Part shown: positions 7,506 to 31,368 of the stretch, piece by piece
Position numbering within the stretch: position 1 is the first letter of the stretch
Layout of the letters: each line of letters opens with the position of its first letter
From: Bacteroidia bacterium
GTDB taxonomy: Bacteria; Bacteroidota; Bacteroidia; AKYH767-A; OLB10
Length of the DNA: 64,000 nt
NCBI GenBank assembly: GCA_038215705.1
Contig: JBBQQQ010000003.1
Span: 69,575-133,574 of the forward strand
Direction: 5' to 3'
Notes under the pieces: model-generated
What the model saw: only the letters and a program-made list of their open reading frames with translations
Databases searched by the model: none
What the model was told of the DNA's origin: nothing
Made by a program: the position numbers and the translations under genes

Positions 7506-8702
7506 ATGAATCCCGCCATTTCATCACCCGATCCACTCACCCGGCCCGTTGATTTTAATAACCTTGAAGTGGCTTTCGCAGGAAAGTCGGATGCGGATCT
7601 CACCCGTGCTTACTGGTTGTTTAAAGCAATGAGCAGTAACCTGCTTGTAAATAACGGTCCGGTTTTACTCGATACAGCCCTAAAATTGCGTTTACCTGTA
7701 ATTCCAATCATCAGAGCAACCATTTATAAACATTTTTGCGGAGGTGAAAGCATAACCGATTGCAATAAGACAATTGCGGCTCTGAAAAAGAAAGGCATTG
7801 GCAGTGTGCTCGATTATTCAGTTGAAGGCGCTGAGAGCGAAGAAAATTTTGATCATACCACAGCAGAAATTATTGCTACGGTTCTGAGAGCAAAAGGCGA
7901 TTCAGCGATTCCATTCTGCGTTTTTAAAGTAACCGGTGTTGCACGTATTGATATCCTTGAAAAAGCAAGTTCGGGTACACTTTCACCGGATGAAAAAATT
8001 GAATTTGAGTTAGCAAGTCAGCGTGTAACAAAAATTTGTGCAGCCGCCGCTGAAAATGATGTTCGTATTTTCATTGATGCCGAAGATTCCTGGATCCAGC
8101 AAGCCATTGATGATATGGCTGATGCTATGATGCAAAAACATAATCGTACGAAAGCCATCGTTTACAACACCATCCAGTTATATCGTACCGACCGGTTAGA
8201 ATTTTTAAAACATTCCCATCACAAAGCGAAAGCAGGTAATTACATCTTAGGACTTAAACTGGTTCGTGGTGCCTATATGGAAAAGGAACGGGCAAGGGCA
8301 GTGGAAAAAAATTATCCCTCACCTATTCAGCCCGATCATGCAGCAACGAATCGTGATTATGATGCGGCTCTTACTTATTGCATCGATCATTTTGGCGAAA
8401 TTGCCCTTTGTGCAGGCACACATAATGAGGCAAGCAGTCATTTACTCGTTCGGTTGATGTACGCTAAAAATATTCCGCACAATCATCCTGATATCTGGTT
8501 TTCGCAACTTTTGGGAATGAGCGACCACATCTCATCCAACCTTGCAGCAGCAGGATATAATGTAGCTAAATACGTTCCCTACGGCCCTGTGAGATCTGTA
8601 CTGCCCTACCTGATACGCCGAGCCCAGGAAAATACTTCAATTGCCGGGCAAACAGGACGCGAGCTCAGTATGATACTGGCAGAAAAAAAACGAAGAAAAT
8701 GA
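7506..8702 (+). CDS. Proline dehydrogenase family protein
   Basis: 398 aa. C-terminal LGMSDHISSNLAAAGYNVAKYVPYGPV..YLIRRAQEN motif typical of proline dehydrogenase TIM-barrel proteins. Confidence 0.85.
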   Translation: MNPAISSPDPLTRPVDFNNLEVAFAGKSDADLTRAYWLFKAMSSNLLVNNGPVLLDTALKLRLPVIPIIRATIYKHFCGGESITDCNKTIAALKKKGIGSVLDYSVEGAESEENFDHTTAEIIATVLRAKGDSAIPFCVFKVTGVARIDILEKASSGTLSPDEKIEFELASQRVTKICAAAAENDVRIFIDAEDSWIQQAIDDMADAMMQKHNRTKAIVYNTIQLYRTDRLEFLKHSHHKAKAGNYILGLKLVRGAYMEKERARAVEKNYPSPIQPDHAATNRDYDAALTYCIDHFGEIALCAGTHNEASSHLLVRLMYAKNIPHNHPDIWFSQLLGMSDHISSNLAAAGYNVAKYVPYGPVRSVLPYLIRRAQENTSIAGQTGRELSMILAEKKRRK

Positions 8703-8882
8703 GGGAATGGGAGAATGCGGGAATGGGATAATGAGGGAATGGGAGAATGAGGGAATGAGAGAATTGGATAATGAGGGAATGGGGGAATGAGGGAATGAGA
8801 GAATTGGATAATGAGGGAATGAGAGAATTAGGAAATTAGGAAAAAAATCCCTTCTACTTTTCTCCTTATGACTTATGACCAA
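8701..8882. repeat. Heptanucleotide tandem-repeat array (GGGAATG/GAGAATG/GAGAATT)
   Basis: About 20 degenerate 7-nt units read directly in the sequence, followed by the flank TTATGACTTATGACC. The array lies in the convergent intergenic gap between proline dehydrogenase and ald. Confidence 0.85.
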
Positions 8883-10567: not shown

Positions 10568-12121
10568 TTATCGGTTCGATAAACTAATTACCGGTAAAAT
10601 CATTTCTTCGGGTGAAACACCACCATGCTGAAATGTATTTTTATAAAAGTTTACATAGTAATTATAGTTATTCGGATAAGCGAAAAATTTATCCTGTTTT
10701 GCAAACACAAATGTTGTGCTCAGGTTCGTTCGCGGGAGCATTGCATCGGAAGGATTTTTTATTTCAAATACATCCTTCTTGTCATAATTCAGATTTTTAC
10801 CCTGCTTGTACCGAAGATTGGTATTCGTATTTCTATCGCCAATGAGTTTTGAAGGTTCTTTCACCCTTATCGTGCCATGGTCGGTGCTGATTACGACTTT
10901 TACTTTTTTAGCTGTTATTTTACGAATGGCTTCCAGCAATGGTGAATGTTCAAACCACGAAACTGTAAGTGAACGGTAGGCTGATTCATCATCTGCCAGC
11001 TCACGTATCACCTGCATATCAGTTCGGGCATGTGAAAGCATGTCCACAAAATTATAAACAATAATGTTGAATTTATTCTGGAACATGTTGGCAATATTAT
11101 CAACCAGCATTTTTCCTGCTTCAAAATTGGTGATCTTGGTATATGAAAATTTCAGTTGCTTTCGCAGACGTTGTACCTGGTCGCCAAAAAAATCTTCTTC
11201 ATGCATGTTTTTTCCTCCTTCGTCTTCATCATTAAACCAGAGTTTCGGAAATCGCTTTTCGATGTCGGATGGCATCATGCCGGCGAAAATTGCATTACGT
11301 GAATATTGTGTTGCTGTTGGAAGAATACTGAAATATGCATCTTCTTCTATCACCTGTAATTCCTCACTCAGAATCGGAGCAATCACTTTCCACTGATCGA
11401 AACGAAGATTGTCGATGAGAATAAAAAATACGGGATCTTCTGTTGCTTCTATAACGGGGAAAATTTTCTTTCTGAAAAGAGTATGCGACATTACCGGTGC
11501 TTTATCATCCTGCTTCAGCCAGTTGATATAATTATTTTCAATGAACTTGCTGAACTGAACATTTGCCTCATCTTTCTGCATCGTGAGGATTTCGTACATG
11601 CCTTCATCTTTGGATTTCTCGAGTTCCAGTTCCCAAAAAATTAATTTCTTGTAAACATCAACCCATGCTTTATAATCAAGTTTATCATTCAGCGTCATTC
11701 CAATATTCCGGAATTCCTGCTGGTAAACAGAAGTGGCTTTTTCACTAACCAGCCGCTTGGTATCAAGATTCTTTTTTATTGAAAGCAGAATCTGGTTCGG
11801 ATTAACGGGCTTGATCAGGTAATCGGCAATCTTTGATCCGATTGCATCTTCCATAATATATTCCTCTTCGCTTTTGGTTATCATCACAACCGGAATCTCG
11901 GCATTCTTATTTTTAAGGCGAACGAGCGTTTCCAAACCTGAAAGTCCGGGCATATTCTCATCGAGAAAAACTATATCATACCGTTGCTTATTGAATAAAT
12001 CAAGCGCATCATGTCCATTGGTGGCTGTGGTAACGTCAAAACCTTTCTCTTGCAAAAAAAGCACATGCGGTTTCAGAAGATCAATCTCATCGTCGGCCCA
12101 AAGAATGCTTAATTTATTCAT
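10568..12121 (-). CDS. porX: Response regulator with C-terminal PglZ/alkaline-phosphatase-like domain (PorX-like T9SS regulator)
   Basis: 517 aa. N-terminal receiver domain (DDE...D58-like VFLDENMPGLSGLE...K) followed by a roughly 380-aa PglZ-type domain. Size and architecture match P. gingivalis PorX. Confidence 0.75.
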   Translation of the reverse strand: MNKLSILWADDEIDLLKPHVLFLQEKGFDVTTATNGHDALDLFNKQRYDIVFLDENMPGLSGLETLVRLKNKNAEIPVVMITKSEEEYIMEDAIGSKIADYLIKPVNPNQILLSIKKNLDTKRLVSEKATSVYQQEFRNIGMTLNDKLDYKAWVDVYKKLIFWELELEKSKDEGMYEILTMQKDEANVQFSKFIENNYINWLKQDDKAPVMSHTLFRKKIFPVIEATEDPVFFILIDNLRFDQWKVIAPILSEELQVIEEDAYFSILPTATQYSRNAIFAGMMPSDIEKRFPKLWFNDEDEGGKNMHEEDFFGDQVQRLRKQLKFSYTKITNFEAGKMLVDNIANMFQNKFNIIVYNFVDMLSHARTDMQVIRELADDESAYRSLTVSWFEHSPLLEAIRKITAKKVKVVISTDHGTIRVKEPSKLIGDRNTNTNLRYKQGKNLNYDKKDVFEIKNPSDAMLPRTNLSTTFVFAKQDKFFAYPNNYNYYVNFYKNTFQHGGVSPEEMILPVISLSNR

Positions 12122-12198: not shown

Positions 12199-13425
12199 TT
12201 GAACAAGAAAAAAATAATCAACGATCCGGTTTACGGGTTCATTACCATTCCTTTTGAAATTGTTCATGATATAATTGAACATCCCTGGTTTCAACGGTTA
12301 ACAAGAATTCGCCAATTAGGTTTAACCTATCTTGTTTACCCCGGTGCATTGCATACCCGATTTCATCATACGCTTGGCGCGATGCATTTGATGACAAACG
12401 CCATTGAAACACTTCGCTCAAAAGGACATTCCATTTCCGATAAGGAAGCCGAGGCAGCCTGCCTGGCTATACTTATGCACGATATCGGTCATGGTCCTTT
12501 TTCACATGCACTGGAAAAATTGCTTGTTAAGGATGTCTCGCACGAGTATATCTCTGAAATTGTGATGGAACGCTTTAATAAAATTTTCGAAGGCCGGTTT
12601 GAAGAAGCTATATCCGTTTTTAATAATACCCATCCTAAAAAATTTCTTCACCAATTGGTTTCCAGCCAGTTGGATGTTGACCGGCTGGATTATCTGAACC
12701 GTGACAGTTTTTTTACAGGCGTTTCAGAAGGAGTTATCAGCTCTGACCGCATCATTAAAATGCTTGAAATTGCGAACGGTAACCTGGCAATCGAAGAAAA
12801 AGGGATTTATTCTGTCGAGAAGTTTATCACCGCCCGCCGGCTCATGTACTGGCAGGTTTACCTGCATAAAACCGTTCTTGCAGCCGAATACATGCTTATA
12901 AATATTATTGTTAGAGCAAAAGAACTGGCAGCATCAGGACACCAATTGTTCGGCACCCCTTCGTTGCTGATTTTTCTGAACTCCGATCATTCTAAAGAAT
13001 CTTTCCGCACAAACCCTGATTTGCTGGAGCGTTTTGTTGAAGTAGATGACTTCGATGTGTTTACATCTATAAAAGTCTGGTGCAACCATCCCGACAAGGT
13101 TCTGGCAACCCTGTGCAGGAGCCTGGTAAATAGAAAATTGTTTAAGATCGAGATTGGAAAGACTCCTTTTTCGAAGCAGGTGATCGCCGAAAGGCAGGCC
13201 CAACTCGCCGATTACCTGGGAATTTCCTTCCGGGAGGCTGCCTTTTTTGTTTTCTCGCATTCCATTGAAAACAATGCTTACGATCAGGAAGATGACAAGA
13301 TCAACATTCTCTTCAAAACAGGCCAGGTGATTGATATTGCAGAGGCTTCCGATAATTTTAACATATCCGCGCTTACCCGCACCGTTACCAAACATTTTTT
13401 CTGTTCATATCGGATACAGGGTTAA
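12199..13425 (+). CDS. HD-domain phosphohydrolase
   Basis: 408 aa. HD motif H..HHTLGAMHL..HDIGHGPFSH. Sits in the conserved Bacteroidota position upstream of lpxD. Confidence 0.8.
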   Translation: MNKKKIINDPVYGFITIPFEIVHDIIEHPWFQRLTRIRQLGLTYLVYPGALHTRFHHTLGAMHLMTNAIETLRSKGHSISDKEAEAACLAILMHDIGHGPFSHALEKLLVKDVSHEYISEIVMERFNKIFEGRFEEAISVFNNTHPKKFLHQLVSSQLDVDRLDYLNRDSFFTGVSEGVISSDRIIKMLEIANGNLAIEEKGIYSVEKFITARRLMYWQVYLHKTVLAAEYMLINIIVRAKELAASGHQLFGTPSLLIFLNSDHSKESFRTNPDLLERFVEVDDFDVFTSIKVWCNHPDKVLATLCRSLVNRKLFKIEIGKTPFSKQVIAERQAQLADYLGISFREAAFFVFSHSIENNAYDQEDDKINILFKTGQVIDIAEASDNFNISALTRTVTKHFFCSYRIQG

Positions 13426-17476: not shown

Positions 17477-17689
17477 ATGGGAGCATCAATACGCGAATGG
17501 CAGAAATCAACAAATGAAATAACTCCTCATCAACCCGAGCCGGTAATAACCTACGACCACATGTCGGATTCAAATCACCATTTATATATCAGTGCAAGGG
17601 AAAAGGTTCCTTATATGTATGTGATACTGGATAGCATTATCCTCCTTACACTCCTAACGGCACTGCTATATGTATCGCTTCTTCCCTGA
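17477..17689 (+). CDS. Hypothetical small protein with C-terminal TM helix
   Basis: 70-aa ORF only. No recognisable family. Confidence 0.2.
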   Translation: MGASIREWQKSTNEITPHQPEPVITYDHMSDSNHHLYISAREKVPYMYVILDSIILLTLLTALLYVSLLP

Positions 17690-17803: not shown

Positions 17804-18226
17804 TCACGCAGGAATAGCATCCTTACTTTTGAATGTTTCAAATTCGCTTTTCAGCTCATTAAAAATTTTGTCGTAATCATTTAACCGGATCTGGTAGGCA
17901 TTCCGCATCATAAGCAGGTAATCCGATACTTTTCCGTCACCACGTTGGGCATGTTCCACCTGGTTTTCGAATTGTTTAAAATCGTGTCTCATAATATCCA
18001 GGACATCCTTTTGCAAAATAATCTGATTCTGGAAATGCTCCGAGCTGGCAGGAACATCGCGCGGAGAATATTTAGCAACGATAATTCCAAGTTCATCCTT
18101 CATAGATTTTAATTCACCCTTAAAATAAAGAATTTGTTTTTGCCAGCCTTCATGCTCTGCAAGCAGGTCTGTCAGTTGTTCCTGTTTTTCCATAGATTGA
18201 ATTTTATTTAGAATTAGTATGATCAC
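17804..18226 (-). CDS. Hypothetical coiled-coil protein
   Basis: 140-aa ORF with charged, heptad-like composition. The start could instead be the internal Met at 18193. No family recognised. Confidence 0.45.
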   Translation of the reverse strand: MIILILNKIQSMEKQEQLTDLLAEHEGWQKQILYFKGELKSMKDELGIIVAKYSPRDVPASSEHFQNQIILQKDVLDIMRHDFKQFENQVEHAQRGDGKVSDYLLMMRNAYQIRLNDYDKIFNELKSEFETFKSKDAIPA

Positions 18227-18639
18227 TCTTATTAATTCACCGACCTTGACATTCCGTTATCGAAAAAGCTGTCATAGCTAAAAAGCGAGTCACTCGTTTG
18301 CACTGTAAATATAAAATAAAATATTAAAAATTAAAATTCTTTCACCCATTCAATTTATAAACAGGCCAAAAACTGACAGGGAATTTGCAGAGTTACGGCA
18401 GATTAAAACTTTTTAAAGCAAAAACAGGCGGTAAAACCTGAATTTCATTCATGCCGGATTATTGACCCCTTTAGTCGCCAACCCAGCAACAACCGGCCTT
18501 CCGGCCTATGGGAGTCATTACAAGGTGCTTTATTCCTGCTCATTTTCATAAAAAACTTACATCCGAAACCTTACTGCTGATATTGAAATTTATTACCCTG
18601 GCCCGGGGGGTATTTTTGGATAACATTAAAAACAGCGTT

Positions 18640-19083
18640 ATGGGAAATTTTATTAAACCTGTAGTATTGGCGTGTTGTATTGGTTTATTTGCAAGCCTTT
18701 CCGCCACGGCACAACAGGTAGAACAATCGAGAAAATACAGGGTGGTTGCTTATAAAAATGGCAATCCTTCAGTGACCTCCACATCCAACACAACCGAGGT
18801 GATTCCTTATATGAGTATATACATTCCAAACTCCTTCACTCCTAACGGCGACGGTATGAACGATACGTTTGGAGCACATGGTGAAGCTATAAAAGAATTT
18901 CGCATGCAGGTATTTAACCGCTGGGGCGAGATGATATTTGAATCGGATAATTATGCCCAGCGATGGGATGGAACTTATGATGGCGTGAAGGCACCTCAGG
19001 GTACATACGTTTATAAAGTTACCGCTTCGGGCATCACCGGGAAACGGGCCTCAAAAAACGGAACAGTGCATTTAATTTATTGA
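18640..19083 (+). CDS. Small secreted protein consisting of signal peptide plus T9SS type-B (gliding-motility CHU_C) C-terminal sorting domain
   Basis: Start chosen at MGNFIKPVVLACCIGLFASLSATAQQ (signal peptide). The C-terminal about 90 aa, NSFTPNGDGMNDTF...FNRWGEMIFES..WDGTYDG..QGTYVYKV, match the type-B CTD consensus. Confidence 0.7.
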   Translation: MGNFIKPVVLACCIGLFASLSATAQQVEQSRKYRVVAYKNGNPSVTSTSNTTEVIPYMSIYIPNSFTPNGDGMNDTFGAHGEAIKEFRMQVFNRWGEMIFESDNYAQRWDGTYDGVKAPQGTYVYKVTASGITGKRASKNGTVHLIY

Positions 19084-19210: not shown

Positions 19211-19286
19211 TTTTTTGGGTGAACTTTCGTACAATTGGGTGAATGTTTCAAATTTTTGGGTGAAAGTGGCCTTTTTTTGGGCAAAA
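19211..19286 (+). promoter_or_regulatory. Four phased direct repeats TTGGGTGAA (last copy TTGGGCAAA), spacing about 20-21 nt
   Basis: Read directly from the sequence: TTTTTTGGGTGAA..ATTGGGTGAA..TTTTTGGGTGAA..TTTTTTTGGGCAAAA, 200-280 nt upstream of the 1533-aa cargo gene. Confidence 0.4.
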
Positions 19287-19355
19287 AACAGTTATTAACA
19301 CTGTGTTAATAACTTTGAGCATTGATTTACAAATAGTTACCATTTAATAACCTTT

Positions 19356-19379
19356 AAACCCTTGTCAATTCAAGGGTTT
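19356..19379. promoter_or_regulatory. Perfect 9-bp inverted repeat AAACCCTTG-N6-CAAGGGTTT
   Basis: Palindrome 112 nt upstream of the 19491 start codon. A related copy sits upstream of the paralog at 25384. Confidence 0.4.
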
Positions 19380-19490
19380 ATATTATTTTCGGCCTCAATC
19401 CCACTAAAATAGCGGTTTAACACTTTTCGGGAATGGGGCTGCTAGCAGAAATGGGTATTAGAAAACCAATTCAAAAACCAATACAAAAAA

Positions 19491-22400
19491 ATGATTGAAA
19501 CAAAATCCCTCAAACCAGCAGGGCGGTCATGGCGAAATTTGCCATTAACAGCTTCTCTGGTGTCATTGCTTATGATGATCCCCTTCGTCACGGTTATGGC
19601 ACAAACAACGTACAATCCCCTCCGTTACTGGAATTTTAACGGTTCCAGTGCAGCTACCGATCAGATGGGTAACTACAATCTGAACTTTACCACCTATAAT
19701 TCAGCGTATACTGTTGAGAACAGCGGCCAGGTAGGAAAATACATTACACTTAACGGGTCATCAAGCCTTATCGATGGCGGATCAGTTTCGTTAAGCAATG
19801 CAGTAACAATTGAAATGTTATTAAAACCGGGTTATTTATTCAATCAATGTAAAATTATACAAAGAGGTGATGATGCATTTTCCGTACGAATGGAATATGC
19901 AAAAATATTTTTTACCACTACTCATAAAAATTCATCAGGTTCCAATGTTGTGAATGAGTTTGCAGTGGATCTGAACGGTATCGGCAGAAAGTCATACGGT
20001 TATTATGTTGATAATAACTGGCATCACATGGTTTTCCGTTTTGATGCTTCTTCAGGTACTAAGGAAATCTGGGTAGACGGACAGTTACCTTCCGGCTTTT
20101 CAACAACTGTTACACCTGGAAGCTTTTCTAACAGCGGAAGCACCACAGTTTATCTCAATCATACTATAGGATATGTAAAATATCTTGGAAGTATTGACGA
20201 GGTGGCTATTTATAATTCAGCCATTCCGTCTTCTCTTATCTACAAACATTACCTGGGTGTTCAAAACGGACAGGGTTATGATTTTGTAAACAATTATTCG
20301 GGTTCGGTACCTGCTGCAGCCAGCATCACGGGTTCAATCGATCCCACTGAGTTTGCTCCGGGTCATCCAAGTGTTAATGTTTCGGCAACAGACCAGGTTC
20401 TTTCTTTCCCGGTTCCACGTTACAAAACGGGTCATACCCTATTGCCTAACGTACCTTTATATGGTGTTGAATACCTTGGAGGTTTATTGCAGCCGGGAGT
20501 CTCTTACAACCAGGCTTTTGCAAATGCAAAAATTCAACAGGCTGACCTTATCAATAATTTCAATCAATCAATATTGATTGCAAGCAATACAGGTGAATAC
20601 GGTTATGCGAACGATACCACCAAATTTTCAGGTTGGTTTATCAAGTATGCCAATAACAACCCTTCTAAAAAAACCAGTGCATTTTCTTTCTGGCCGCAAT
20701 TAAATCCGAGAAATATCGGAAAGGCTTCAAGTCTTGCTTATGCAGAATGTAATTGTATGAGCAATAACCATTATCTGCGAAACAGCTCCGGTCAGTTTCT
20801 TGATCTTTCTGGAAATGTTACTTCCGACAAATGGCTCAGTCCTGCTGCCCCGGTCGATTCAATCGCATACGACGGCTTAACCCAGCGTTTTTACCTTCAG
20901 CAAATCACTGCCCGCATGACCCGTCCTCTGGATCTGATCTTTGAAAATGGAGAAACACTGCCATTCTATAACAACCCTACAGCTCTTGCAAAAGATCCTG
21001 CTGTACTGAATGATAAAAATAACAGTGGCCTCGACTGGTATACCTACGAAGGACGCCGCGCTAAAGAAAAAGCGCTTGCGTATCGTAACCAGTTTATGAA
21101 CCTTCCTGCTTTATCTAATACCAAGTTTGCCTATTTCCAGGTTGACGGTCAGTCAACATGGCGTTTCAAATACAGTGAAATGCGTGAGGCAAGCACTCAG
21201 ATAAATGGACAGTATTACCCAACAGGTGATATTTACATGCGTTATCCCGACAACTGGAGATACTGGAGCAGTGCATGGCATGGATGGCAGTGGGTAGCTG
21301 AATCAAGAAAAGTTGAACTTGCAAACGGCGATAAATTGTATTCACCTCCTGTTGCTGCAGGCTGGGATTTTGATGAAACTAAAAATGTTCGCCCTGCACA
21401 ATGGCTGGGAATGTTAAAAGCGTTCTCAATGACCGGTGCTGAATTCTTCTATCCTTCATTTTTCACCACATCCACTCCTTACCAGGATCCAAAGAACTGG
21501 GCATGGCAGGTAGTTATGCCTTCATATTCACAGGCTATAAGTAGTCGCTATGAGGACTTATTGCGTAACGGATTTCTGATGGAAGGTGATGTTCCTGATA
21601 ATTATTCAACACCTTCTTATAATGCTTACTCTTTTAAATCGGGTGACTTACGCAAGCTGGTTGTAATCAGGAAACATAATACGCTTGCAAAATATGCGAT
21701 TACAGGAACGCTTCAGCCTAACTCAAATATGATGGGCAATGCTGAAAATTCAGGTGTTGCTTCTATAGCGCTTGACGGACAAACGCTGAAGTTCCAGGTG
21801 AGACGCCAGGGAAGCACATATATCTACGACAAATCAAATGCTGCTGCTCCTGTGTTTTATCAGCTCGACGGATGGCATGAAGCAACTCACCCTTCCTCAT
21901 GGTCTAAGGACTTTAATTTCGAGGCAGAATTATTTGACAACTCCAATTCAAGTGCAGTAATCAAAACGGTTGTTCCTTCAGGAACCACAGCTGGTGACTT
22001 CACTAATTATACAAGCTATGTGAGCTTTACAGCTGCGTCGGATATCATATTCAACTTTACTCCCCGCAAAGGAGCTCCTTCAACGCAATATCTGTGGGTG
22101 AGAGCACGCAGTAAAGATGGTTCTTCTACCGGTTTCACAGCTACATTGAACAGCGGTGCGGTAAATACTTTCGATTGCATCCGTGATACAAACTGGGTTT
22201 GGTACCGTTTCAACACCAGTAATGCTGCAGTTGTTTACAATGGCCTTACTACAACCAGCAACCAGTTAAAAATTACTGCTCTTAATACCAAAATTGAAAT
22301 TGACAAAGTTTCCCTGATGAGCACTTCAAGCGCTGTTTATGGAAATGCAGTAAATTCATGTACCAATGCGCAGGCAAGCATCACTGCTAACGGTTCAACC

Positions 22401-24092
22401 ACATTCTGTCAGGGCGGAAGTGTAAATCTTACAGCAAGCACCGGCACATCATACCAGTGGTCTAACGGCGCAACTTCCCAGGCAATCACTGTCTCCTCAA
22501 CCGGAACGTATACAGTTACCGTTACAACAAATGGTGTAGGAACTTCTACTTCTTCGCCTGTAAGCGTAACTGTTAACCCATTACCTACAGCAACCATCAG
22601 CGCCAGCGGATCTACTACCTTCTGCCAGGGTGGATCGGTAACGCTGACAGCTTCTTCAGGATCGTCCTATCTGTGGAGTCCGGGAAATCAGACTTCACAA
22701 TCAATAACTGTTACAACAGGTGGTACTTATAATGTACGTGTAACAAATTCTAACAGCTGCGCTAAAGTTTCGGCAAATACAAGTGTTACTGTAAACAGTC
22801 TGCCGGTTGCAACAATCTCACCAAGCGGATCATTAAATCTTGCTGCAGGAGGAAGTGTAACGCTTACCGCATCATCAGGAAGCAGCTATCTGTGGTTACC
22901 CGGTAACCAGACTTCACAATCTATTAGTGTGAACACAGCAGGTTCCTACACAGTAAGAGTTACAAATGGTTCAGGCTGTTCTGCGACATCTGCTGCTGCA
23001 GTAGTTACTGTTGCTTCCTCAGGTGGTGGAACTGCAACCATTACTACTTCAGGTCATACTACATTCTGCCAGGGTGGAAGTGTAACACTTACTGCCAGCA
23101 ACGGAACGTCCTTCCTGTGGTCAAATGGATCTACCAATAAATCAATTACCGTGAGTGCATCCGGAACATATACAGTAACGGTATACAATGGAACAACTCC
23201 ATCAACGTCAGCTCCGGTAAGTGTAATTGTTTGGCCCCTTCCAACGGCAACAATCACTGCCAGTGGACCTACATCTTTCTGTACAGGCGGTACGGTTACA
23301 TTAACAGCGTCTTCCAATTACTCGTATTCCTGGACTCCGGGTGGACAAACCAGTCAGTCAATAAACGTATCCACTTCCGGTAATTACAATGTTATAGTTA
23401 CTAATTCGAACGGCTGTACAAAAACTGCATCTTCGGTGCCTGTTACTGTTTCAAGTTGTACTGCCTGTGATCCTCCTTATGGCCTGGTAACTTCAAATGT
23501 CAAGTATAATTCGGCTACTTTTTCATGGGGACATCCCGGTACCGGTCAAACCCAGTACAATGTTAAGATCAAAAACATGCAGACGGGGTATAACTATATC
23601 ACCGGTAAAGTTCCTTACACTACTCAGACTATCTCTGTTGGAGCAAATCAAGCGACAAGTTATCGCTGGTGGGTACGCTCCTGGTGTGGTACTTCAGTAA
23701 GTTCTACTTACGCAGGTTACCTGGCCTTCACTACTCCATCAGTTCGAACAATGTCAAATGGAATTAATGAAGAAACTCCTGAGCTGACAGAAACATTCCT
23801 TGATACAGAGGATGATCCTTCGATGACGTTCTATATCGATGAAAATCAGGTTCAGGTATTCCCGAACCCAGCCAGTACGAGTGCTGCCATTTCGTTTAAG
23901 GTTGATCAGAATGAAAAAATGACACTTACGATTATGGAGATCAATGGCAAAGTGATTTCAACTGAGACTATAGATGCAATGGAAGGTATTAATCTTCATG
24001 ACATGGATCTGAGTAATTATCCGAAAGGATTGTATATGATACAGCTTACAGGAGGTGGAAAAACAACCACTAAGAGGCTTGCTGTTCAATAA
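19491..24092 (+). CDS. Very large T9SS-secreted protein: LamG-like domain + uncharacterised module + Ig-like repeats + FN3 + type-A CTD
   Basis: 1533 aa with a signal peptide. A LamG/concanavalin-like region is followed by an about 600-aa Trp-rich conserved module. Seven or more 75-aa Ig-like repeats (TFCQGGSVTLTAS..YLWSPGNQTSQSITV) and an FN3 domain follow. The C-terminal sorting domain reads VFPNPASTSAAISF...GLYMIQL. Confidence 0.85.
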   Translation: MIETKSLKPAGRSWRNLPLTASLVSLLMMIPFVTVMAQTTYNPLRYWNFNGSSAATDQMGNYNLNFTTYNSAYTVENSGQVGKYITLNGSSSLIDGGSVSLSNAVTIEMLLKPGYLFNQCKIIQRGDDAFSVRMEYAKIFFTTTHKNSSGSNVVNEFAVDLNGIGRKSYGYYVDNNWHHMVFRFDASSGTKEIWVDGQLPSGFSTTVTPGSFSNSGSTTVYLNHTIGYVKYLGSIDEVAIYNSAIPSSLIYKHYLGVQNGQGYDFVNNYSGSVPAAASITGSIDPTEFAPGHPSVNVSATDQVLSFPVPRYKTGHTLLPNVPLYGVEYLGGLLQPGVSYNQAFANAKIQQADLINNFNQSILIASNTGEYGYANDTTKFSGWFIKYANNNPSKKTSAFSFWPQLNPRNIGKASSLAYAECNCMSNNHYLRNSSGQFLDLSGNVTSDKWLSPAAPVDSIAYDGLTQRFYLQQITARMTRPLDLIFENGETLPFYNNPTALAKDPAVLNDKNNSGLDWYTYEGRRAKEKALAYRNQFMNLPALSNTKFAYFQVDGQSTWRFKYSEMREASTQINGQYYPTGDIYMRYPDNWRYWSSAWHGWQWVAESRKVELANGDKLYSPPVAAGWDFDETKNVRPAQWLGMLKAFSMTGAEFFYPSFFTTSTPYQDPKNWAWQVVMPSYSQAISSRYEDLLRNGFLMEGDVPDNYSTPSYNAYSFKSGDLRKLVVIRKHNTLAKYAITGTLQPNSNMMGNAENSGVASIALDGQTLKFQVRRQGSTYIYDKSNAAAPVFYQLDGWHEATHPSSWSKDFNFEAELFDNSNSSAVIKTVVPSGTTAGDFTNYTSYVSFTAASDIIFNFTPRKGAPSTQYLWVRARSKDGSSTGFTATLNSGAVNTFDCIRDTNWVWYRFNTSNAAVVYNGLTTTSNQLKITALNTKIEIDKVSLMSTSSAVYGNAVNSCTNAQASITANGSTTFCQGGSVNLTASTGTSYQWSNGATSQAITVSSTGTYTVTVTTNGVGTSTSSPVSVTVNPLPTATISASGSTTFCQGGSVTLTASSGSSYLWSPGNQTSQSITVTTGGTYNVRVTNSNSCAKVSANTSVTVNSLPVATISPSGSLNLAAGGSVTLTASSGSSYLWLPGNQTSQSISVNTAGSYTVRVTNGSGCSATSAAAVVTVASSGGGTATITTSGHTTFCQGGSVTLTASNGTSFLWSNGSTNKSITVSASGTYTVTVYNGTTPSTSAPVSVIVWPLPTATITASGPTSFCTGGTVTLTASSNYSYSWTPGGQTSQSINVSTSGNYNVIVTNSNGCTKTASSVPVTVSSCTACDPPYGLVTSNVKYNSATFSWGHPGTGQTQYNVKIKNMQTGYNYITGKVPYTTQTISVGANQATSYRWWVRSWCGTSVSSTYAGYLAFTTPSVRTMSNGINEETPELTETFLDTEDDPSMTFYIDENQVQVFPNPASTSAAISFKVDQNEKMTLTIMEINGKVISTETIDAMEGINLHDMDLSNYPKGLYMIQLTGGGKTTTKRLAVQ

Positions 24093-24143: not shown

Positions 24144-24434
24144 GTCAGCATTTTCGCTGAGTGACCTGAAAATTCTTTTCCTGTTATCAAAATGCCAGAA
24201 AAAATTTTAAAACTCACACTCCGTTTATCCGGAATATAGTTTGAGTTTTTTTGCTCTCACCTCTGACGGTGGGCTTTTCAAGCTGGCGGTTAAATCAAAA
24301 TCCTGTAATTATTAATGCAAATCTTACATGTTACCGAAGTATCAAAAGATGCTTCATATCTGTGCCGGGGTGAGCCTATTTTTGTTGCATCATATCCAAT
24401 GAACGAAAATAACTACTTAATAAATTTTAAAGAA

Positions 24435-25217
24435 ATGAAACAAACATCTACAAACAGAATGGAAGTTTACTCAACCGGCCAGGCAATCAGAAAAAATGCT
24501 TTTAAGCTTTTTATCATCCTTGCAATGAGTGGTACTTCATTAACGTATGCACAACGAGTTGCAAACACTGACATTAACCCGGTGGTGATTCAGCCTTCCG
24601 GCGAAAAAAATCCGGGATCCGGAACTGTTAAAGGCAATGTAATTGTTGCTCCTATCGCTCCAACTATTTCTTCACTTCAGATGCTTGACATGGGTCATGA
24701 CAAAGCAATTCTGACCTGGGATAATATGTCGAATTTTGACAGTATAATCTTTCGTTATGCTCCATCCGGTGCAAGTACCACACGGATAGTAGCAATTTCG
24801 GGCAATCCGAATCCTGAAAGATATTACCTGTTGGGTTTGCAGTCTCAAACCACTTATGATATTGAAGTAAGTACTGTTGCTTCTAATGGTGTGCGCTCAT
24901 CATGGAGTTCTCCTTTAACTGTTACAACACTTACTGAACCCACTCCACGCCTTTCACAGGGAAATACCAACAGGTTAATTGTAAATCCGAATCCGGCAAC
25001 CACATTAACTAATATTTCCTTTGTGACTACCAACAGCATGCCACAGCAGGTTAGTATTGTATCCTCTGCAGGTCGTGTAATGTACAGCAGACAAATTATT
25101 CCAAATGATGATAAAGTTCAAATGACCATTGATGTGACTGCTTATCCTCCGGGAATCTATATGGTTCGCGTGAATAACAACAGCAATGTATCTGTTGAAC
25201 GACTTATCAAACTGTAA
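24435..25217 (+). CDS. Small T9SS cargo: signal peptide + FN3 domain + type-A C-terminal sorting domain
   Basis: The ORF opens at 24315. The start was chosen at MKQTS..FKLFIILAMSGTSLTYAQ (signal peptide). FN3-like region (ILTWDN..YDIEVSTV) and CTD LIVNPNPATTLTNISF...GIYMVRV. Confidence 0.65.
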   Translation: MKQTSTNRMEVYSTGQAIRKNAFKLFIILAMSGTSLTYAQRVANTDINPVVIQPSGEKNPGSGTVKGNVIVAPIAPTISSLQMLDMGHDKAILTWDNMSNFDSIIFRYAPSGASTTRIVAISGNPNPERYYLLGLQSQTTYDIEVSTVASNGVRSSWSSPLTVTTLTEPTPRLSQGNTNRLIVNPNPATTLTNISFVTTNSMPQQVSIVSSAGRVMYSRQIIPNDDKVQMTIDVTAYPPGIYMVRVNNNSNVSVERLIKL

Positions 25218-25241
25218 AAATCCTATCTGTTTGAGTGATTG

Positions 25242-25269
25242 GGAGGCCGGAGGGCCTCCCTTTTTTTTG
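25242..25269 (+). terminator. Rho-independent terminator
   Basis: GGGAGGCC-GGAG-GGCCTCCC stem followed by a T8 run. Confidence 0.8.
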
Positions 25270-25383
25270 AAATGACGGATGCAATAACAAGACTTTAAAA
25301 TTACCAATACCCCCATTCCACCTTAGCAAAGAAGGATTTTTTCATAAAAACTGACACCTTCTCATCAACCACCAAAAATAAAT

Positions 25384-25416
25384 AAACCCTGTAAAATTAA
25401 GGGTTTCCAAGGGTTG
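25384..25416. promoter_or_regulatory. Inverted repeat AAACCCT-N9-AGGGTTT plus extra half-site AAGGGTTG
   Basis: Same palindrome family as 19356-19379, located 233 nt upstream of the 25639 start. Confidence 0.4.
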
Positions 25417-25638
25417 AACTTCGAAAAATTACCAATCAGAAGCCCTTTTCAGGTAAAATATTACACAGGTGACCATAAATGAAACAATCATCCACGGAGG
25501 CTTTATGCGCGGAATATATTTGTCACCGTTGGCCTTCTAACAAGTAAGACAATTATATAACAATGTAAATAATTCAGTAAAAAACATATGCCTTAACCAG
25601 AATAAAAAAAACACTCAAACAAAAACTCAACAGATACA

Positions 25639-28600
25639 ATGAAAAACAATTTTACAGATCAGGTTTTAAAAAGTGTAAGCTCATTAAGCGCAACGTTCCA
25701 GTTCTGTTTGATGCTCGTATTGCTTATACTAATGGCAATCATCAATGCAGGTGCTCAAACTGTCAATCCAGTCAGGTACTGGACATTCAATGGAACAAGT
25801 GCTTCAACAGATTCCATGGGTCAGAACAATCTTAATTTTACCAGTTATGGAAGCCAGTATACGGTTGGTACAAACGGTCAGGTTGGAAAATTTCTTACCC
25901 TTGATGCCAATTCGAATCTTATTGATGGCGGATCGCTTAGCTTAACGAATGCGGTAACGGTAGAATTTTTATTAAAACCCGGCTACAAATTCAATACAAC
26001 TAATATCATGCAGCGTGCCGATGGCGCTTTCTCCATCAGGATCGAATATGCGACTTTAACATTCAGCACCACTCATAAAGCTGCAAATGGTGCAACCATT
26101 GAAGATAATTTTGCCATATCACTGGAAGGTCTTGGAAGGAAATCATACGGATACTATGTAGACAACAACTGGCATCACCTGGTGTTTCGTTTTGATGCAG
26201 CAACCGGATCCAAACAAGTATGGGTGGACGGTCAGCTTCCTGCAGGATTCAGCAAAACGATAACTGCAGGCTCATTCCAGAATAGTGGAAATATTAATTT
26301 CTATCTTAATCATTCAGTAAGCTACGTAAAATACTTTGGCAGCATTGATGAACTTGCAATTTATAATACCGCAATTCCTTCTAACCTTATTTACAAACAT
26401 TATCTCGGGGTTCAAACAGGACAACCTTATAACTTCGTAAATAATTATTCAGGAACTATTCCTCCTGCATCCTCAACAACCAGTCCGCTCGACCCAACTG
26501 AATTTGCACCGGGTCATCCGACAGTCAATGTTTCCGCAATTGAACAATTACAGAAGTATCCGCTACCACGTTACAAACCGGGAAACACCCTGATGAAAAA
26601 TTTCAACTGGATGGATCCTAAATTTATGGGAGGTTTATTGCAACCCGGTGTGACCAATCAACAGGCCGCCAATAACAGTGCAGTCATACAGACTGAACTT
26701 GCAAAAAATTTCAACTACTATTTCCAGGTAGGACTTGGCAATGGCATATTTGAAACAGCCTGGACCAACGCGGCAAATGCGAACCCCGACTTTAAGTTAT
26801 CGCTGATAATTTTTCGCGGACAATTAAATGGCAACAATAGTGAGCTCACTAATCAAAATAAAACTGCAGCACACTATCTGCAGAATTCAAGTGGGCAGTT
26901 TATCGATGCCAATGGCAATGTAACAACTTCCAAAATCTGGAGACCTACTGCTCCTACCTCATCATACAATGCCGATGGCAATGCCATATACACCATGCTA
27001 ACCGACATGTATTCGCGGTTAAACCGGAATGTGGATGTAGTTAATGAAAATGGTGAGGTCTTCCCACATCCATCCGAAACAGCAATGGCAATGGACCCTG
27101 CTGTGTTAGCTGCAAAGAATGCTTCAGGCCTCGACTGGAAATCGTTTCTGTCACGAAAATATAAAGAGAACGAAACACAATCGTACCGTGATATTATCAT
27201 GTCACACCCACGTATGAGTTCTGCTAAATTTACTGAATATGCGATTGACGGTTTCCCCGAGTACCGCATGAAATACAGCGAAGCGCGGTCGGTAAATTCT
27301 CAGATTAATGGTCAGTATTATCCGACGCCTGATTTCTATCCCCGATGGTCTAATAACTGGAGAAACTGGGTTTCTGCGTGGCATGGCTGGCAGTGGATCG
27401 TAGAATCGCGCGTGCATGAACTGGCTGCAGGAGACAGATTGTATTCTCCTTTCGTAGCTGCAGGATGGGATGCAGATGAAGAAAAAAATATACGCCCTGC
27501 ACAATGGTTAGGTTTGTTAAAATGCCTGGGCATGACCGGTGCTGAATTTTATTATCCCGGGTTCTTCTCACTGGCTGCTCCTTGGCCCGATTCTAAAAAC
27601 TGGATCTGGCAGGCTGCTATGCCACCTTATGCACAGGCAATAACCAGCAGGTATGAAGACCTAATTCGCAATGGAGAATTAATGTTAGGCGATGTTGGAA
27701 ACAGCTATGTAACTCCTACCGCTCCGGGCTATGCGTTTTGGACTGGTGACCTTAGAAAACTGGTAGTAGTGCGTAAACATAATACCGTTAGCAAATACGC
27801 TATCACTGGAACCATCCAGCCTAACAGCAGCATGACCGGCAATGCAGAAAATGAAAGTGTAGCTACAATCACACTTGATGGTCAGGTATTATCATTCAAA
27901 GTTAAAAGACAGGGCAGCACCTATATTTATGATAAATCAAATCCATCAGGAGCTATATTTTACCAGTTAGATGGATGGCATGAAAAATCGCATCCTTCAC
28001 ATTGGTCACATGATTTTAATCTGGAGGCTGAATTATTCGATAACACAAATACACAAGTTGCAATTAAAACTGCTGTGCCTGCCGGAACTGCAGCAGGTGA
28101 TTATACAAATTTTACCAGCTACCTTGCCTGGCCTGACGGGGTTACCAACCCACAGCCTGTTGAATACAACTTTGCACCACGGGGCAATTTTAACAGCAAT
28201 CTGTATGTATGGGTAAGAGCACGCAGCCGGGGTGGCGTTACTTCCAGCATGAATGTTCAACTGGATAACAATGCTGCAAAAACAATCGGCTGTATCAGTG
28301 ATACTGCATGGACCTGGTACCGGTATGATGCCTGTACACAACAGGAAATCCGCTTCCAGAATATCTCTATCCAAAATCATATAATTAAACTTACACCCGG
28401 CAATGATAAGCTGGAGATTGACAAAGTATTGCTTACAGCAGATGCTTCACTGCTCCTCAATTCCGCACCTCCGTCGTGTGGAGCAGCAACAGCAACCATT
28501 ACTCCTTCAGGTAACACAACTTTTTGCACAGGAGGAACAGTCACCCTTACTGCAAGCGCCGGGACTTCATATCAATGGACTCCTGGGGGTCAAACAACAC

Positions 28601-31368
28601 AGTCGATTGTTGTGAATGCTTCAGGTTCGTATAATGTAACAGTCGGTTCCGGTGCAGGTTGTGCAGCTATTGCAAATGCTGTCACAGTTTCTGTAGTTCA
28701 GGCACCCAGTGCACAAATAACAACAGGTGGATCTACAACACTTTGCCCTGGCGCTTCCGTTACCCTGACAGCTCCTTCGGGAATGTCGGGGTATCTTTGG
28801 ATGCCGGGCGGACAAACTACGCAATCGATCACCACTTCAACCGCTGGATTCTATACAGTAAGAGTTACTAATGCTGGCGGATGTTCTGCTACATCATCCC
28901 CGGTGAATGTTACAGTAGGTCAAACTCCAGTGGCAACAATCACAGCCGGAGGAACTACATCATTTTGCCAGGGTAGTAGTGTTACGCTTACCGCTTCAGC
29001 AGCCAACAGTTATTTATGGTTTCCCGGAGGACAAACAACTCAGTCGATAACGGCATCGTCTACAGGAAATTATACCGTGCGTGTAACTGGATCAGGGGGT
29101 TGTACTGCTATGTCAAATCCATCTACAGTTACAGTGTATGCGCTTCCAACAGCAACCATTTCCGCAAACGGGCCTACTTCTTTTTGCACAGGTGGCAACG
29201 TAACTCTTACTGCAGCTAATGCAACTTCCTACTTATGGTTACCGGGCGGACAAACTTCCCAGTCAATAAATGTAACATCCGCAGGATCGTATTCAGTACG
29301 TGTGACTAATAGCTCAGGATGTTCAGCAACATCAACAGCAACAAATGTAAATGTATCAGCATACCCGGTTGCAACCATCACACCCGCAGGATCTACTTCA
29401 TTGTGTGCAGGAAGTTCTGTCGGTTTATCAGCCAGCACAGGCACCGCTTATTTGTGGACTCCGGGCAACCAGACAACACAAACAATTTCAGCTACGACTG
29501 CAGGTGCATATACCGTTAGAGTAACTAATAGTGCCGGTTGTTCAACAACATCGCAGCCAACCAATATTACAGTCAATCCGGCTGTTAACGCAACTATCAG
29601 TGCCAATGGCCCTACAGCTATTTTACCCGGCGGTAGTGTAACACTTACAGGAGCGGGAGGCACTTCGTATGTATGGTCTCCGGGAGGACAAACCACTTCT
29701 TCTATAACTGTTAACACACCGGGTTTCTATAGTGTAACAGCTTATTCCGCGTCGGGATGTTCGGCAACATCCACTCCAACAGAAATTACCCTTGTAAATA
29801 TAAATACACCACCGGCAACAATTACCGCATCCAATAATTCAGGTATGTTGTGTCCTGGAAATTACATGACCTTAACAGCATCTGCAGGAAGTTCTTATTT
29901 ATGGACCCCAGGCGGACAAACCACGCAATCGATCAACATCAGTATTGCAGGATCGTACTCTGTAGATATCACCGACCTTACAGGTGTTACCATTTCATCA
30001 GCCACGTTTGATGTACTTTATAAGCCTGCACCCGACGCACCTGCAATCATGAGTGCATACATTCCTTCAGCATCCTTTCAGTTATCAGCATACGAGCCAA
30101 CAGCCCATTCGTATTTATGGTCGAACGGTGCTACAACCGATGCCATAACAGTGAACAATACCGGAACTTATACAGTGCGTGCAATAAATGGATTTGGTTG
30201 TAAGTCGGCACCGCAAACAATGACCGTGACTTCATTATCGTCACAGCATTGCGGAACACCAAACATGCTTTCTCACTATGGCATTACTAAAACAAGCGCT
30301 GTTGTTTCATGGAATCCCAGCGTAACTGCCGATTCATTTCGTGTTGAATACACACGGATATCAACTGCACAAAATTTCTCAGTGAATGTTGCGGGATCAC
30401 AAAGTAAGATAACTCTTTCCGGGCTTACGGAAGGTGAATTGTATAAATGGAATGTTGTTGCAATCTGCAGTGGCATTCAAACTGGAAGTGCCATAAAACA
30501 ATTCACCACATTAAACGGACCGTTACCTTGTGGCTCAACTCCTCAGAACTTATCGAATGATGTAGTCAACAGCACCATGGCAAAAGTTTCATGGTTTGAT
30601 ACACAGGCCGACAAATTTGTAATTCGCTACCGTGCAGTAGGAACACAAAATTATCTTTACAGGAGAGCTTTTAATTCACTAACTTCAGGGTTAATCGAAG
30701 GACTTACACCATCAACAAACTATGAGTGGAGTGTTCGCTCGGCATGTGCCGGAAATGTTAGTCTTTATTCAGCACCAAAATTCTTCACCACTCCTGCAGC
30801 ATGCCCCGCAATTGGTCCATTTGCCGTTAGTGAAATCACTTTTAACAAAGCACTTGTTTCCTGGACACCATCTACACTTGTTGACAGCGTTATGGTTAAA
30901 TGGGCAGTAAGTGGTACAACAGATTACAGGCATGTTAAAATAGCTGCTTCACCTGATCCGGGAGAATACTGGATACTGGGACTTGAACCTGAAACAACAT
31001 ATGATGTGTGGGTCGCTACAAAGTGTGATGCCGGAAGCACTTCCATGTGGGGTGCAGGTGATTCCTTCACTACCTTCACGGATCCCAATTTACGTTTTAC
31101 TCCTGAAGCAGGTGCCATTCATCTGAATGCGTATCCTAACCCAACAAAATTTGAACTTAGTTACGTGTTTGAATCAAAAGACGACAAACCGTACCTGGTA
31201 AAAGTATGTGATATGGCGGGCAGGGAATTACTTGCCGAAGAACGAATTGCAAACGAAGGAAAAACAGGAGACAAAGTTGATTTACCCGGATTCTCGGGAG
31301 GGTTGTATATGCTGATCATTCAAAAAGGAGGTCAGGTAGGACGATTCAAGTTCAATATTCATGAATAA
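25639..31368 (+). CDS. Very large T9SS-secreted paralog: LamG-like + uncharacterised module + about 10 Ig-like repeats + 3 FN3 + type-A CTD
   Basis: 1909 aa. The N-terminal 850 aa align co-linearly with the 19491 protein (for example YYVDNNWHH.VFRFDA, WHGWQW..ESR, RPAQWLG.LK...MTGAEF.YP). The C-terminal sorting domain reads LNAYPNPTKFELSY...GLYMLII. Confidence 0.85.
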   Translation: MKNNFTDQVLKSVSSLSATFQFCLMLVLLILMAIINAGAQTVNPVRYWTFNGTSASTDSMGQNNLNFTSYGSQYTVGTNGQVGKFLTLDANSNLIDGGSLSLTNAVTVEFLLKPGYKFNTTNIMQRADGAFSIRIEYATLTFSTTHKAANGATIEDNFAISLEGLGRKSYGYYVDNNWHHLVFRFDAATGSKQVWVDGQLPAGFSKTITAGSFQNSGNINFYLNHSVSYVKYFGSIDELAIYNTAIPSNLIYKHYLGVQTGQPYNFVNNYSGTIPPASSTTSPLDPTEFAPGHPTVNVSAIEQLQKYPLPRYKPGNTLMKNFNWMDPKFMGGLLQPGVTNQQAANNSAVIQTELAKNFNYYFQVGLGNGIFETAWTNAANANPDFKLSLIIFRGQLNGNNSELTNQNKTAAHYLQNSSGQFIDANGNVTTSKIWRPTAPTSSYNADGNAIYTMLTDMYSRLNRNVDVVNENGEVFPHPSETAMAMDPAVLAAKNASGLDWKSFLSRKYKENETQSYRDIIMSHPRMSSAKFTEYAIDGFPEYRMKYSEARSVNSQINGQYYPTPDFYPRWSNNWRNWVSAWHGWQWIVESRVHELAAGDRLYSPFVAAGWDADEEKNIRPAQWLGLLKCLGMTGAEFYYPGFFSLAAPWPDSKNWIWQAAMPPYAQAITSRYEDLIRNGELMLGDVGNSYVTPTAPGYAFWTGDLRKLVVVRKHNTVSKYAITGTIQPNSSMTGNAENESVATITLDGQVLSFKVKRQGSTYIYDKSNPSGAIFYQLDGWHEKSHPSHWSHDFNLEAELFDNTNTQVAIKTAVPAGTAAGDYTNFTSYLAWPDGVTNPQPVEYNFAPRGNFNSNLYVWVRARSRGGVTSSMNVQLDNNAAKTIGCISDTAWTWYRYDACTQQEIRFQNISIQNHIIKLTPGNDKLEIDKVLLTADASLLLNSAPPSCGAATATITPSGNTTFCTGGTVTLTASAGTSYQWTPGGQTTQSIVVNASGSYNVTVGSGAGCAAIANAVTVSVVQAPSAQITTGGSTTLCPGASVTLTAPSGMSGYLWMPGGQTTQSITTSTAGFYTVRVTNAGGCSATSSPVNVTVGQTPVATITAGGTTSFCQGSSVTLTASAANSYLWFPGGQTTQSITASSTGNYTVRVTGSGGCTAMSNPSTVTVYALPTATISANGPTSFCTGGNVTLTAANATSYLWLPGGQTSQSINVTSAGSYSVRVTNSSGCSATSTATNVNVSAYPVATITPAGSTSLCAGSSVGLSASTGTAYLWTPGNQTTQTISATTAGAYTVRVTNSAGCSTTSQPTNITVNPAVNATISANGPTAILPGGSVTLTGAGGTSYVWSPGGQTTSSITVNTPGFYSVTAYSASGCSATSTPTEITLVNINTPPATITASNNSGMLCPGNYMTLTASAGSSYLWTPGGQTTQSINISIAGSYSVDITDLTGVTISSATFDVLYKPAPDAPAIMSAYIPSASFQLSAYEPTAHSYLWSNGATTDAITVNNTGTYTVRAINGFGCKSAPQTMTVTSLSSQHCGTPNMLSHYGITKTSAVVSWNPSVTADSFRVEYTRISTAQNFSVNVAGSQSKITLSGLTEGELYKWNVVAICSGIQTGSAIKQFTTLNGPLPCGSTPQNLSNDVVNSTMAKVSWFDTQADKFVIRYRAVGTQNYLYRRAFNSLTSGLIEGLTPSTNYEWSVRSACAGNVSLYSAPKFFTTPAACPAIGPFAVSEITFNKALVSWTPSTLVDSVMVKWAVSGTTDYRHVKIAASPDPGEYWILGLEPETTYDVWVATKCDAGSTSMWGAGDSFTTFTDPNLRFTPEAGAIHLNAYPNPTKFELSYVFESKDDKPYLVKVCDMAGRELLAEERIANEGKTGDKVDLPGFSGGLYMLIIQKGGQVGRFKFNIHE

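Follow-up and report, generated by a model that had tools for sequence, protein, structure and literature searches.

Two large paralogous genes of an uncultured member of the Bacteroidia are each preceded by a palindrome built on AAACCCT and AGGGTTT, which raises the question of what this element does: it could be recognised in DNA by a regulator shared by the two genes, fold into a hairpin in nucleic acid, or have no separate function. Both genes encode proteins with PKD/Ig/FN3 repeats and a type IX secretion (T9SS) C-terminal sorting domain. To our knowledge, little is known about the regulation of T9SS cargo genes outside Porphyromonas, and nothing for these uncultured Bacteroidia. An earlier examination of the letters of the window (the whole 64,000-nucleotide stretch of DNA that was analysed), called the sequence-only reading below, had proposed either a shared operator for a dimeric regulator or a conserved 5'-leader RNA hairpin. 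Comparison with related loci favours the operator, and places it within a larger set of conserved promoter and leader elements.

The locus and its two palindromes

The genes and the palindromic sites are located as follows.

19355..19380: P1 palindrome, TAAACCCTTG-tcaatt-CAAGGGTTTA, predicted to span -41..-16
19491..24092, + strand: first cargo gene (P1), 1533 aa, PKD/Ig repeats and a T9SS C-terminal sorting domain
24315-25217: small FN3-CTD gene between P1 and P2, with the sorting domain likewise present
25384..25406: P2 palindrome, AAACCCT-gtaaaatta-AGGGTTT, 7-bp arms around N9, predicted to span -143..-121
25409..25415: a further right half-site, AAGGGTT, 10 bp beyond the one in the palindrome
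25639..31368, + strand: second cargo gene (P2), 1909 aa, a paralogue of P1 (53% identical)

The P1 palindrome is a perfect 10-bp inverted repeat around a 6-nt centre, 26 bp in all, and ends 111 nt before the ATG at 19491. The sequence-only reading was right about its perfect symmetry, although the arms are 10 bp long and not 9 bp. The related palindrome that it reported before the second paralogue is present as AAACCCT-N9-AGGGTTT at 25384-25406; the end given there, 25416, is explained by the third half-site AAGGGTT. Over the 64-kb window and both strands, AAACCCT-N4-14-AGGGTTT has exactly two matches, for 0.01 expected from dinucleotide shuffles (none of 100 shuffles reaches two), which bears out the statement that the palindrome occurs neither before the small FN3-CTD gene nor elsewhere in the window. 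The heptamer alone is not enriched in the window (13 occurrences for 11.2 expected), so the signal lies in the dyad. A relaxed search of the window with up to three mismatches yielded no convincing further copy. The sole match with one mismatch, AAACCCTGATTTGCTGGAGCGTTT at 13011-13034 (N10), lies within an HD-domain coding region and is probably due to chance. When the regions upstream of P1 and P2 are aligned, they have nothing in common outside the palindrome, which is thus not the leftover of a duplicated intergenic region.

Relatives were collected by one scan of a genome collection and one of metagenomes, using the conserved N-terminal 970 aa as a query, which gave 65 loci, and by exact-protein look-ups of homologues, which gave 10 further loci with long flanks. 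All of these loci belong to uncultured Bacteroidia/Bacteroidota and are centred on P1/P2-type genes; together with the window, they total 604,537 bases. A 94% identical locus (L008) comes without upstream DNA, and the closest relative that has it is L066 (81% protein identity). The conserved gene order runs from AlaDH, TsaE, PorX, HD, LpxD, LpxC/FabZ, LpxA and an ABC ATPase, through a 130-aa minus-strand ORF and a small CHU_C gene, to P1, the small CTD protein, P2, NamZ and MacB. Because this order is conserved, the loci are orthologous.

Several ORFs upstream of P1 can be described further. The ORF at 18508-19083 encodes a small CHU_C protein (type B T9SS signal), whose true start is probably the internal Met at about 18637 (147 aa in relatives), so that the listed 191-aa ORF is too long. 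The ORFs at 17477-17689 (+ strand, 70 aa) and 17804-18226 (- strand, 140 aa) have no Pfam or NCBIfam match; counterparts of similar size, strand and position lie between the ABC ATPase and CHU_C genes in L067-L074, and sequence similarity to the 140-aa ORF is also found in L003.

Promoters and leaders of the two genes

The promoter of the first gene was placed by comparing about 30 related loci, start sites being predicted from consensus and conservation. Upstream of P1-type genes, about 300 bp can be aligned between lineages that share 58-81% protein identity, and the elements are still recognisable down to about 40% protein identity. Their order, from 5' to 3', is direct repeats, a second palindrome (IR-A), a short TTGAwwwTCAA motif, TTG-N19-TAnnTT(T/C)GGC and the leader. 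In the window, the elements other than the P1 palindrome lie at the following positions.

19215..19285, + strand: direct repeats, TTGGGTGAA three times (19215, 19235, 19256) and TTGGGCAAA once (19277)
19290..19314: IR-A, AGTTATTAACAC-t-GTGTTAATAACT, perfect 12-bp arms, predicted to span -106..-82
19362..19364, + strand: predicted -33 element TTG, within the left arm of the P1 palindrome
19384..19391, + strand: predicted -7 box TATTTTCG, one mismatch to TAnnTTTG, with a predicted start at about 19396
19410..19444, + strand: conserved leader stem-loop, with invariant CGGGAATGGG in the loop and 3' arm

The combination TTG-N19-TAnnTTTG is the Bacteroidetes -33/-7 promoter (PMC2483708), the -7 box of which spans -12 to -5 in the transcription start map of Flavobacterium psychrophilum (PMC9723704); the TAnnTTTG consensus was taken from these two sources. 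TTG-N19-TAnnTTYG matches the window at 19362-19391. As the number of -33/-7 patterns inside the window alone is not above chance (3 vs 2.45), the support for this promoter comes from conservation. The TTG and its exact 19-nt spacing to the box are found in every palindrome-bearing orthologue, the TAnnTT(T/C)GGC column is conserved in all P1-type loci, palindrome or not, and orthologues show TATTTTTG or TATATTTG in the alignment column of the window's TATTTTCG. These observations point to a promoter of the Bacteroidetes sigma-A type (-33/-7). Sigma-70 scanning is uninformative for this phylum.

The -33 TTG falls within the left arm of the palindrome in every case, and the spacer is taken up by the right arm. 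Since it covers the -33 element and the spacer, the palindrome lies upstream of the predicted start. The TA..TT(T/C)G box persists in lineages devoid of the hairpin (L007, L020, L063, L067, L072), and because box and promoter are retained without the palindrome, the T-rich tail that follows it is a promoter box and not merely a terminator U-tract. A MerR-type spacer operator was considered and rejected, since the dyad centre (19367.5) is about 6 nt upstream of the middle of the spacer, and the spacer is not over-long, the same 19 nt being found in every orthologue with or without the palindrome.

Upstream of this core promoter, the direct repeats are spaced 20-21 bp apart (two helical turns), and the exact 9-mer TTGGGTGAA is found nowhere else in the window. 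They read TTTGGGTGAA across lineages, remain conserved in P1-type loci as distant as about 40% protein identity, and probably serve as activator sites, with a phasing that we take to recall LytTR- or AraC-type binding. IR-A, which reads GTTATyAACA-N3-TGTTrATAAC across lineages, is more widely conserved than the P1 palindrome. In 21 locus rows, 82 +/- 1 nt separate its centre from the -7 box, and spacing as rigid as this is a property of DNA architecture. An asymmetry between its arms (TCAACA vs TGTTAA) is conserved in many lineages and would be a C-A mismatch in RNA, which argues for recognition at the DNA level.

Downstream of the predicted start, the leader contains CTTTTC(C)GGGAATGGG and the stem-loop at 19410-19444. 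Seven of the nine pairs of this stem-loop show compensatory changes, 82% of the cells are paired, and none of 500 shuffles reaches any of five measures. With no Rfam match for 19410-19444, the stem-loop is a candidate new cis-regulatory RNA. An ATG inside CGGGAATGGG begins short upstream ORFs, which vary in length (4-21 codons, counted by eye).

P2-type genes have a promoter of a different class from P1, with its own conserved -7 box, for which two elements were located in the window.

25461..25472, + strand: TTACACAGGTGA box (TTACAC..GTGA), exactly 54 nt upstream of the P2 -7 box
25515..25522, + strand: predicted P2 -7 box TATATTTG, with a predicted start at about 25527

The -7 box aligns as TATTTTTG/TACTTTTG in L015-17, L019, L038, L066, L067, L069, L070 and L074, and the 54-nt offset of the TTACAC box is identical in six loci. 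Within 25515-25638 of the window, the leader motifs ATGCCwAA and ACTCAACAGA are conserved, and this promoter class is common to a larger homologue group (L021-L026, L034, L047, L048). The centre of the P2 palindrome is 120 nt upstream of the start of the -7 box in the window, in L017/L004 and in L016/L019/L069, that is, in three lineages, and the predicted start is about 130 nt downstream of the palindrome.

On the opposite strand, the P2 copy could be taken for a minus-strand promoter, as the reverse strand reads AAACCCT..AGGGTTTATT-TATTTTTGG. At 25372-25380 (- strand), 3 nt past the palindrome, TATTTTTGG forms a perfect -7-like box that mirrors the P1 layout, and local alignment of the reverse strand scores 34, against a shuffle maximum of 31. 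The resemblance is judged to be due to chance, and the candidate was rejected, since L015, L016 and L017 do not share this box and there is nothing downstream of it on that strand.

Distribution and spacing of the sites

Among the relatives, the P1 palindrome, with arms of 7-10 bp, is found in the window and in L001/L070, L002, L003-5/L040/L052, L068 (one mismatch), L069, L074 and L075. Other relatives carry altered forms: L061 has AATCCTT/AAGGATT, a complementary double change; L006 is degenerate, with one A-T to G-C exchange and two broken pairs; L066 is degenerate through two uncompensated mismatches; and L067 has lost the palindrome. The site is under moderate, not absolute, constraint. 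Distant promoters of the P1 type show no hairpin or dyad tendency and no excess folding at the palindrome position, so the palindrome is an addition in one clade, and the idea that a hairpin at -33 is a general rule of this promoter type was discarded, as it is confined to the window's clade.

The second site is likewise variable. It reads CAAACCC-N11-GGGTTTG in L017/L004, is a nested pair in L016/L019/L069 (AAACCCTGAA...TTCAGGGTTT around CCCCT...AGGG), is degenerate in L015 and L074 (CxCCCC...GGGTTC), and is absent from L018, L038, L066, L067 and L070. The nested pair forms a 15-bp nested hairpin in L016/L069 (-21 kcal/mol) and has its half-sites where the window has the extra AAGGGTT. When both genes are compared within one genome, the window, L069 and L004 have both sites, L070 and L074 have the P1 site only, and L066 (P1 copy degenerate), L067, L071, L072 and L073 have neither; a P2 site unaccompanied by a P1 site occurs in none of the genomes so compared, an association that rests on about ten related genomes.

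Across the 604,537 bases of the window and the sampled loci, AAACCC-N9-12-GGGTTT occurs 15 times, for 0.04 in shuffles. Fourteen of these occurrences are upstream of P1 or P2 genes; the lone N10 occurrence is a canonical terminator in L045, unrelated to P1/P2. The spacing is N11 in 13 of the 15 and N12 in the window's P1 copy, and the outer half-site pair of L016/L069 (N26) is an exception to it. More AAACCC/GGGTTT copies are found in L074 and L075. With two copies in 64 kb, and all but one in 604 kb at P1/P2, a REP- or MITE-like dispersed repeat was rejected.

The copies occupy three non-homologous positions, each with a fixed offset: the P1 core promoter, a place 168-169 bp further upstream, and -132 at P2. 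These three contexts share the conserved arms AAACCC(T)/(A)GGGTTT and have unrelated centres, TTGTCAATCAA, TTTAACAGCAA, TGTAAAATTAA, AATGTTAATGC and TTATTTTTCAA being found among the copies; that the arms are kept across non-homologous contexts suggests sequence-specific recognition.

The additional upstream copy, AAACCC-N11-GGGTTT, was found in separate lineages at the following positions of the respective loci.

2698-2720: L003, L004 and L005, 169 bp upstream of the promoter copy
1930-1952: L052, 169 bp upstream of the promoter copy
1592-1614: L075, 168 bp upstream of the promoter copy

A distance of 168-169 bp corresponds to 16 helical turns and puts this copy immediately 5' of the direct repeats. 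L068, L069, L070 and L074 have weaker versions at this position, and the copy is absent from the window, L061 and L066. It is followed by TTTTCATTTT in L003-5 and by no T-run in L075. That it might terminate transcription of the CHU_C gene was rejected, given this lack of a T-run in L075 and its position in L003-5, 354 nt past the CHU_C stop with no clear ORF between. An invertible promoter flanked by the two L003-5 copies was also dismissed, as no evidence for it was found and the -7 box is outside the segment.

Possible functions and known parallels

The account that we favour, with about even confidence, is that the palindrome is an operator for a putative dimeric regulator, which would repress the first gene. 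The element would be a dyad-symmetric site, read at the DNA level by a dimeric transcription factor in one uncultured Bacteroidia clade, with the core AAACCC-N11-GGGTTT (N12 in the window's first copy). Conserved arms, a near-constant N11 in unrelated contexts and a fixed offset to the promoter box point to a dimeric DNA-binding protein. The dyad has a free centre, a constant half-site spacing and a fixed position relative to the promoter elements, and a purely structural hairpin would need neither conserved arms, nor N11 spacing, nor fixed offsets. A dimer at -41..-16, sitting on the -33 TTG and the greater part of the 19-nt spacer, would exclude RNA polymerase and sigma-A, hence the suggestion of repression at P1. 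In some lineages, the copy 168-169 bp upstream might function as an auxiliary operator, with DNA looping around the activator-site region, and the P2 copy, at about -132, would be in the position of an auxiliary or weaker operator. From the sequences, their conservation, their spacing and their place on the promoter, we infer the start sites, the binding of a protein and the direction of regulation.

Of the proposals made by the sequence-only reading, the shared operator thus appears to fit the comparative data best, given conserved arms, a variable centre, a mostly N11 spacing and a P2 site that is found only alongside a P1 site. Co-regulation of the two paralogues stands as far as a site common to both is concerned, but the promoter classes differ, the site is centred at about -28 for P1 and about -132 for P2, and it is degenerate or absent in L066, L067, L015 and L074 for the second gene. 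Several observations weigh against the operator: the site is clade-specific and degenerate or absent in some close relatives, the complementary double changes of L061 and L006 are more typical of structural constraint, and the P2 copy of L016/L069 forms a long nested hairpin. Beside P1/P2, no gene for a classical transcription factor was found, and the only candidate regulator near the genes is PorX, 7.4 kb away.

Those structural observations lend themselves to another explanation, which we consider unlikely, namely that the palindrome works as a nucleic-acid hairpin, either as a terminator or insulator against read-through from the CHU_C gene or the regulatory region, or as a single-strand or cruciform structure. 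The P1 copy, with a 10-bp stem including four G-C pairs, followed by TATATTATTTTC, folds as RNA at -13.5 kcal/mol (z = -4.05), has a T-rich 3' side and is listed by a terminator scan, and the additional copy of L003-5 also precedes a T-rich stretch, the TTTTCATTTT mentioned above. The double changes of L061 and L006 are complementary, the P2 copy of L016/L069 is the 15-bp nested hairpin described above, and a homologous upstream hairpin reads CCCGC/GCGGG in L069 and CCCTT/AAGGG in L003. Nevertheless, the window's P2 copy lacks a U-tract and its folding does not surpass that of shuffles (z = -0.36), the upstream copy of L075 has no T-run, and the T-rich tail at P1 is the conserved TAnnTTTG box, kept where the hairpin is missing. 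In L003, L066 and L068, the mismatched positions do not form wobble pairs. The upstream genes are already followed by strong canonical terminators (L002, L006, L007, and 25241-25260 in the window), yet the palindrome is still there, and a purely structural element would not be expected to share arms and N11 between unrelated contexts. Far less probable still is a hairpin within the 5' leader of the mRNA, controlling stability, attenuation or translation. While a stable hairpin and a T-rich tract 111 nt before the ATG suit it, and the start sites are predicted ones, the palindrome is embedded in a TTG-N19-TAnnTTTG promoter that keeps a rigid 82-nt offset between IR-A and the box; the predicted start, about 19396, is downstream of it; the P2 copy lies some 130 nt upstream of its own predicted start; and it is another element, at 19410-19444, that forms the conserved structure of the leader. 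Rfam returned five tRNAs only for the whole window at gathering scores, and only noise for both upstream regions at E <= 10. The leader hairpin put forward by the sequence-only reading is therefore not supported, given a palindrome upstream of the predicted starts at both P1 and P2 and the lack of an Rfam match.

It is equally doubtful that the palindrome has no separate function. On this reading, the conservation of the left arm would be due to the -33 element, and both the right arm and the P2 copy would be chance sequences or slowly decaying remnants, for instance of gene conversion between the upstream regions of the paralogues. The left arm and centre (CCCTTGTCAAT) are better conserved than the right arm, as seen in L006, the site decays in L066, L067 and L015 although the promoter is retained, and the link between the P1 and P2 sites comes from the ten or so related genomes noted above. 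Against this, 15 occurrences for 0.04 expected, 13 of them with N11, are hard to reconcile with chance, the right arm is conserved at 64-75% protein identity in a spacer that is normally free, and copies stand in three non-homologous positions with a fixed offset in each.

For the operator, the nearest parallel is AusR, a regulator of the GntR/FadR family with operators in the alginate-utilisation promoters of Zobellia galactanivorans; within this one regulon, the operators overlap the -7 box at some promoters and are set off from it by 32 or 125 nt at others (PMC7641319). In both systems, palindromic operators occur in flavobacterial-type sigma-A promoters with a TAnnTTTG -7 box, on the core promoter or at a distance, in one to three copies per promoter. 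The AusR motif, TKGT-N2-3-ACMA, differs from AAACCC-N11-GGGTTT, and its targets are catabolic enzymes instead of secreted cargo proteins; AusR binding was demonstrated by EMSA and a deletion mutant, whereas the operator proposed here is known from sequence. Pairs of main and auxiliary operators that loop DNA are represented by lac O1/O3, gal OE/OI and ara O2/I1. The dyads of L003-5/L052 and L075 resemble such pairs in being 168-169 bp, a whole number of helical turns, apart, with one copy on the core promoter and the activator-site region bracketed by the pair; they differ in that looping is suggested by spacing alone and that the window itself has no second copy. Like Rho-independent terminators, the P1 copy and the upstream copy of L003-5 are stem-loops followed by a T-rich tract, but the P2 copy and the upstream copy of L075 have no T-run, the tract at P1 is a promoter box, and the stem sequence is common to the sites, which terminators do not need. 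A literature search for T9SS in connection with an inverted repeat or a repressor returned nothing relevant.

A palindromic operator on a promoter is an ordinary class of element, and the promoter and leader module around it is the more notable result. The comparison provides a testable promoter map, with start sites, an operator consensus, likely activator sites and a structured leader, and the natural presence or absence of the operator among close relatives could reveal the regulator by phylogenetic profiling.

One lead concerns PorX, the T9SS response regulator. An orthologue is encoded at 10568-12121 (- strand; NF052313, 841 bits for a cut-off of 300), and the position of porX, 7.4 kb upstream of P1, is conserved across L071-L073. 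At the porT promoter of Porphyromonas gingivalis, PorX footprints cover -106..-83 and -39..-14 (PMC8050853), positions that coincide with those predicted for IR-A (-106..-82) and the palindrome (-41..-16). The sequences show no resemblance by eye, and the coincidence depends on the predicted transcription start and is a lead only; the binding of DNA by PorX is disputed, according to the title of another report (PMC5005315). It is a long shot that the palindrome is the clade-specific part of a rigidly spaced and previously undescribed control module for T9SS cargo, perhaps read by the T9SS signalling system, which may comprise three phased direct repeats, IR-A, a loopable operator pair and the covarying leader stem-loop. 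If it were so, the cargo genes would be wired directly to the regulator of their secretion system.

Further upstream, between the proline dehydrogenase and alanine dehydrogenase genes, the window carries a G/A-rich tandem repeat array (8694-8836) with a period of 16/24/40 and the consensus AGAGAATGAGGGAATG.
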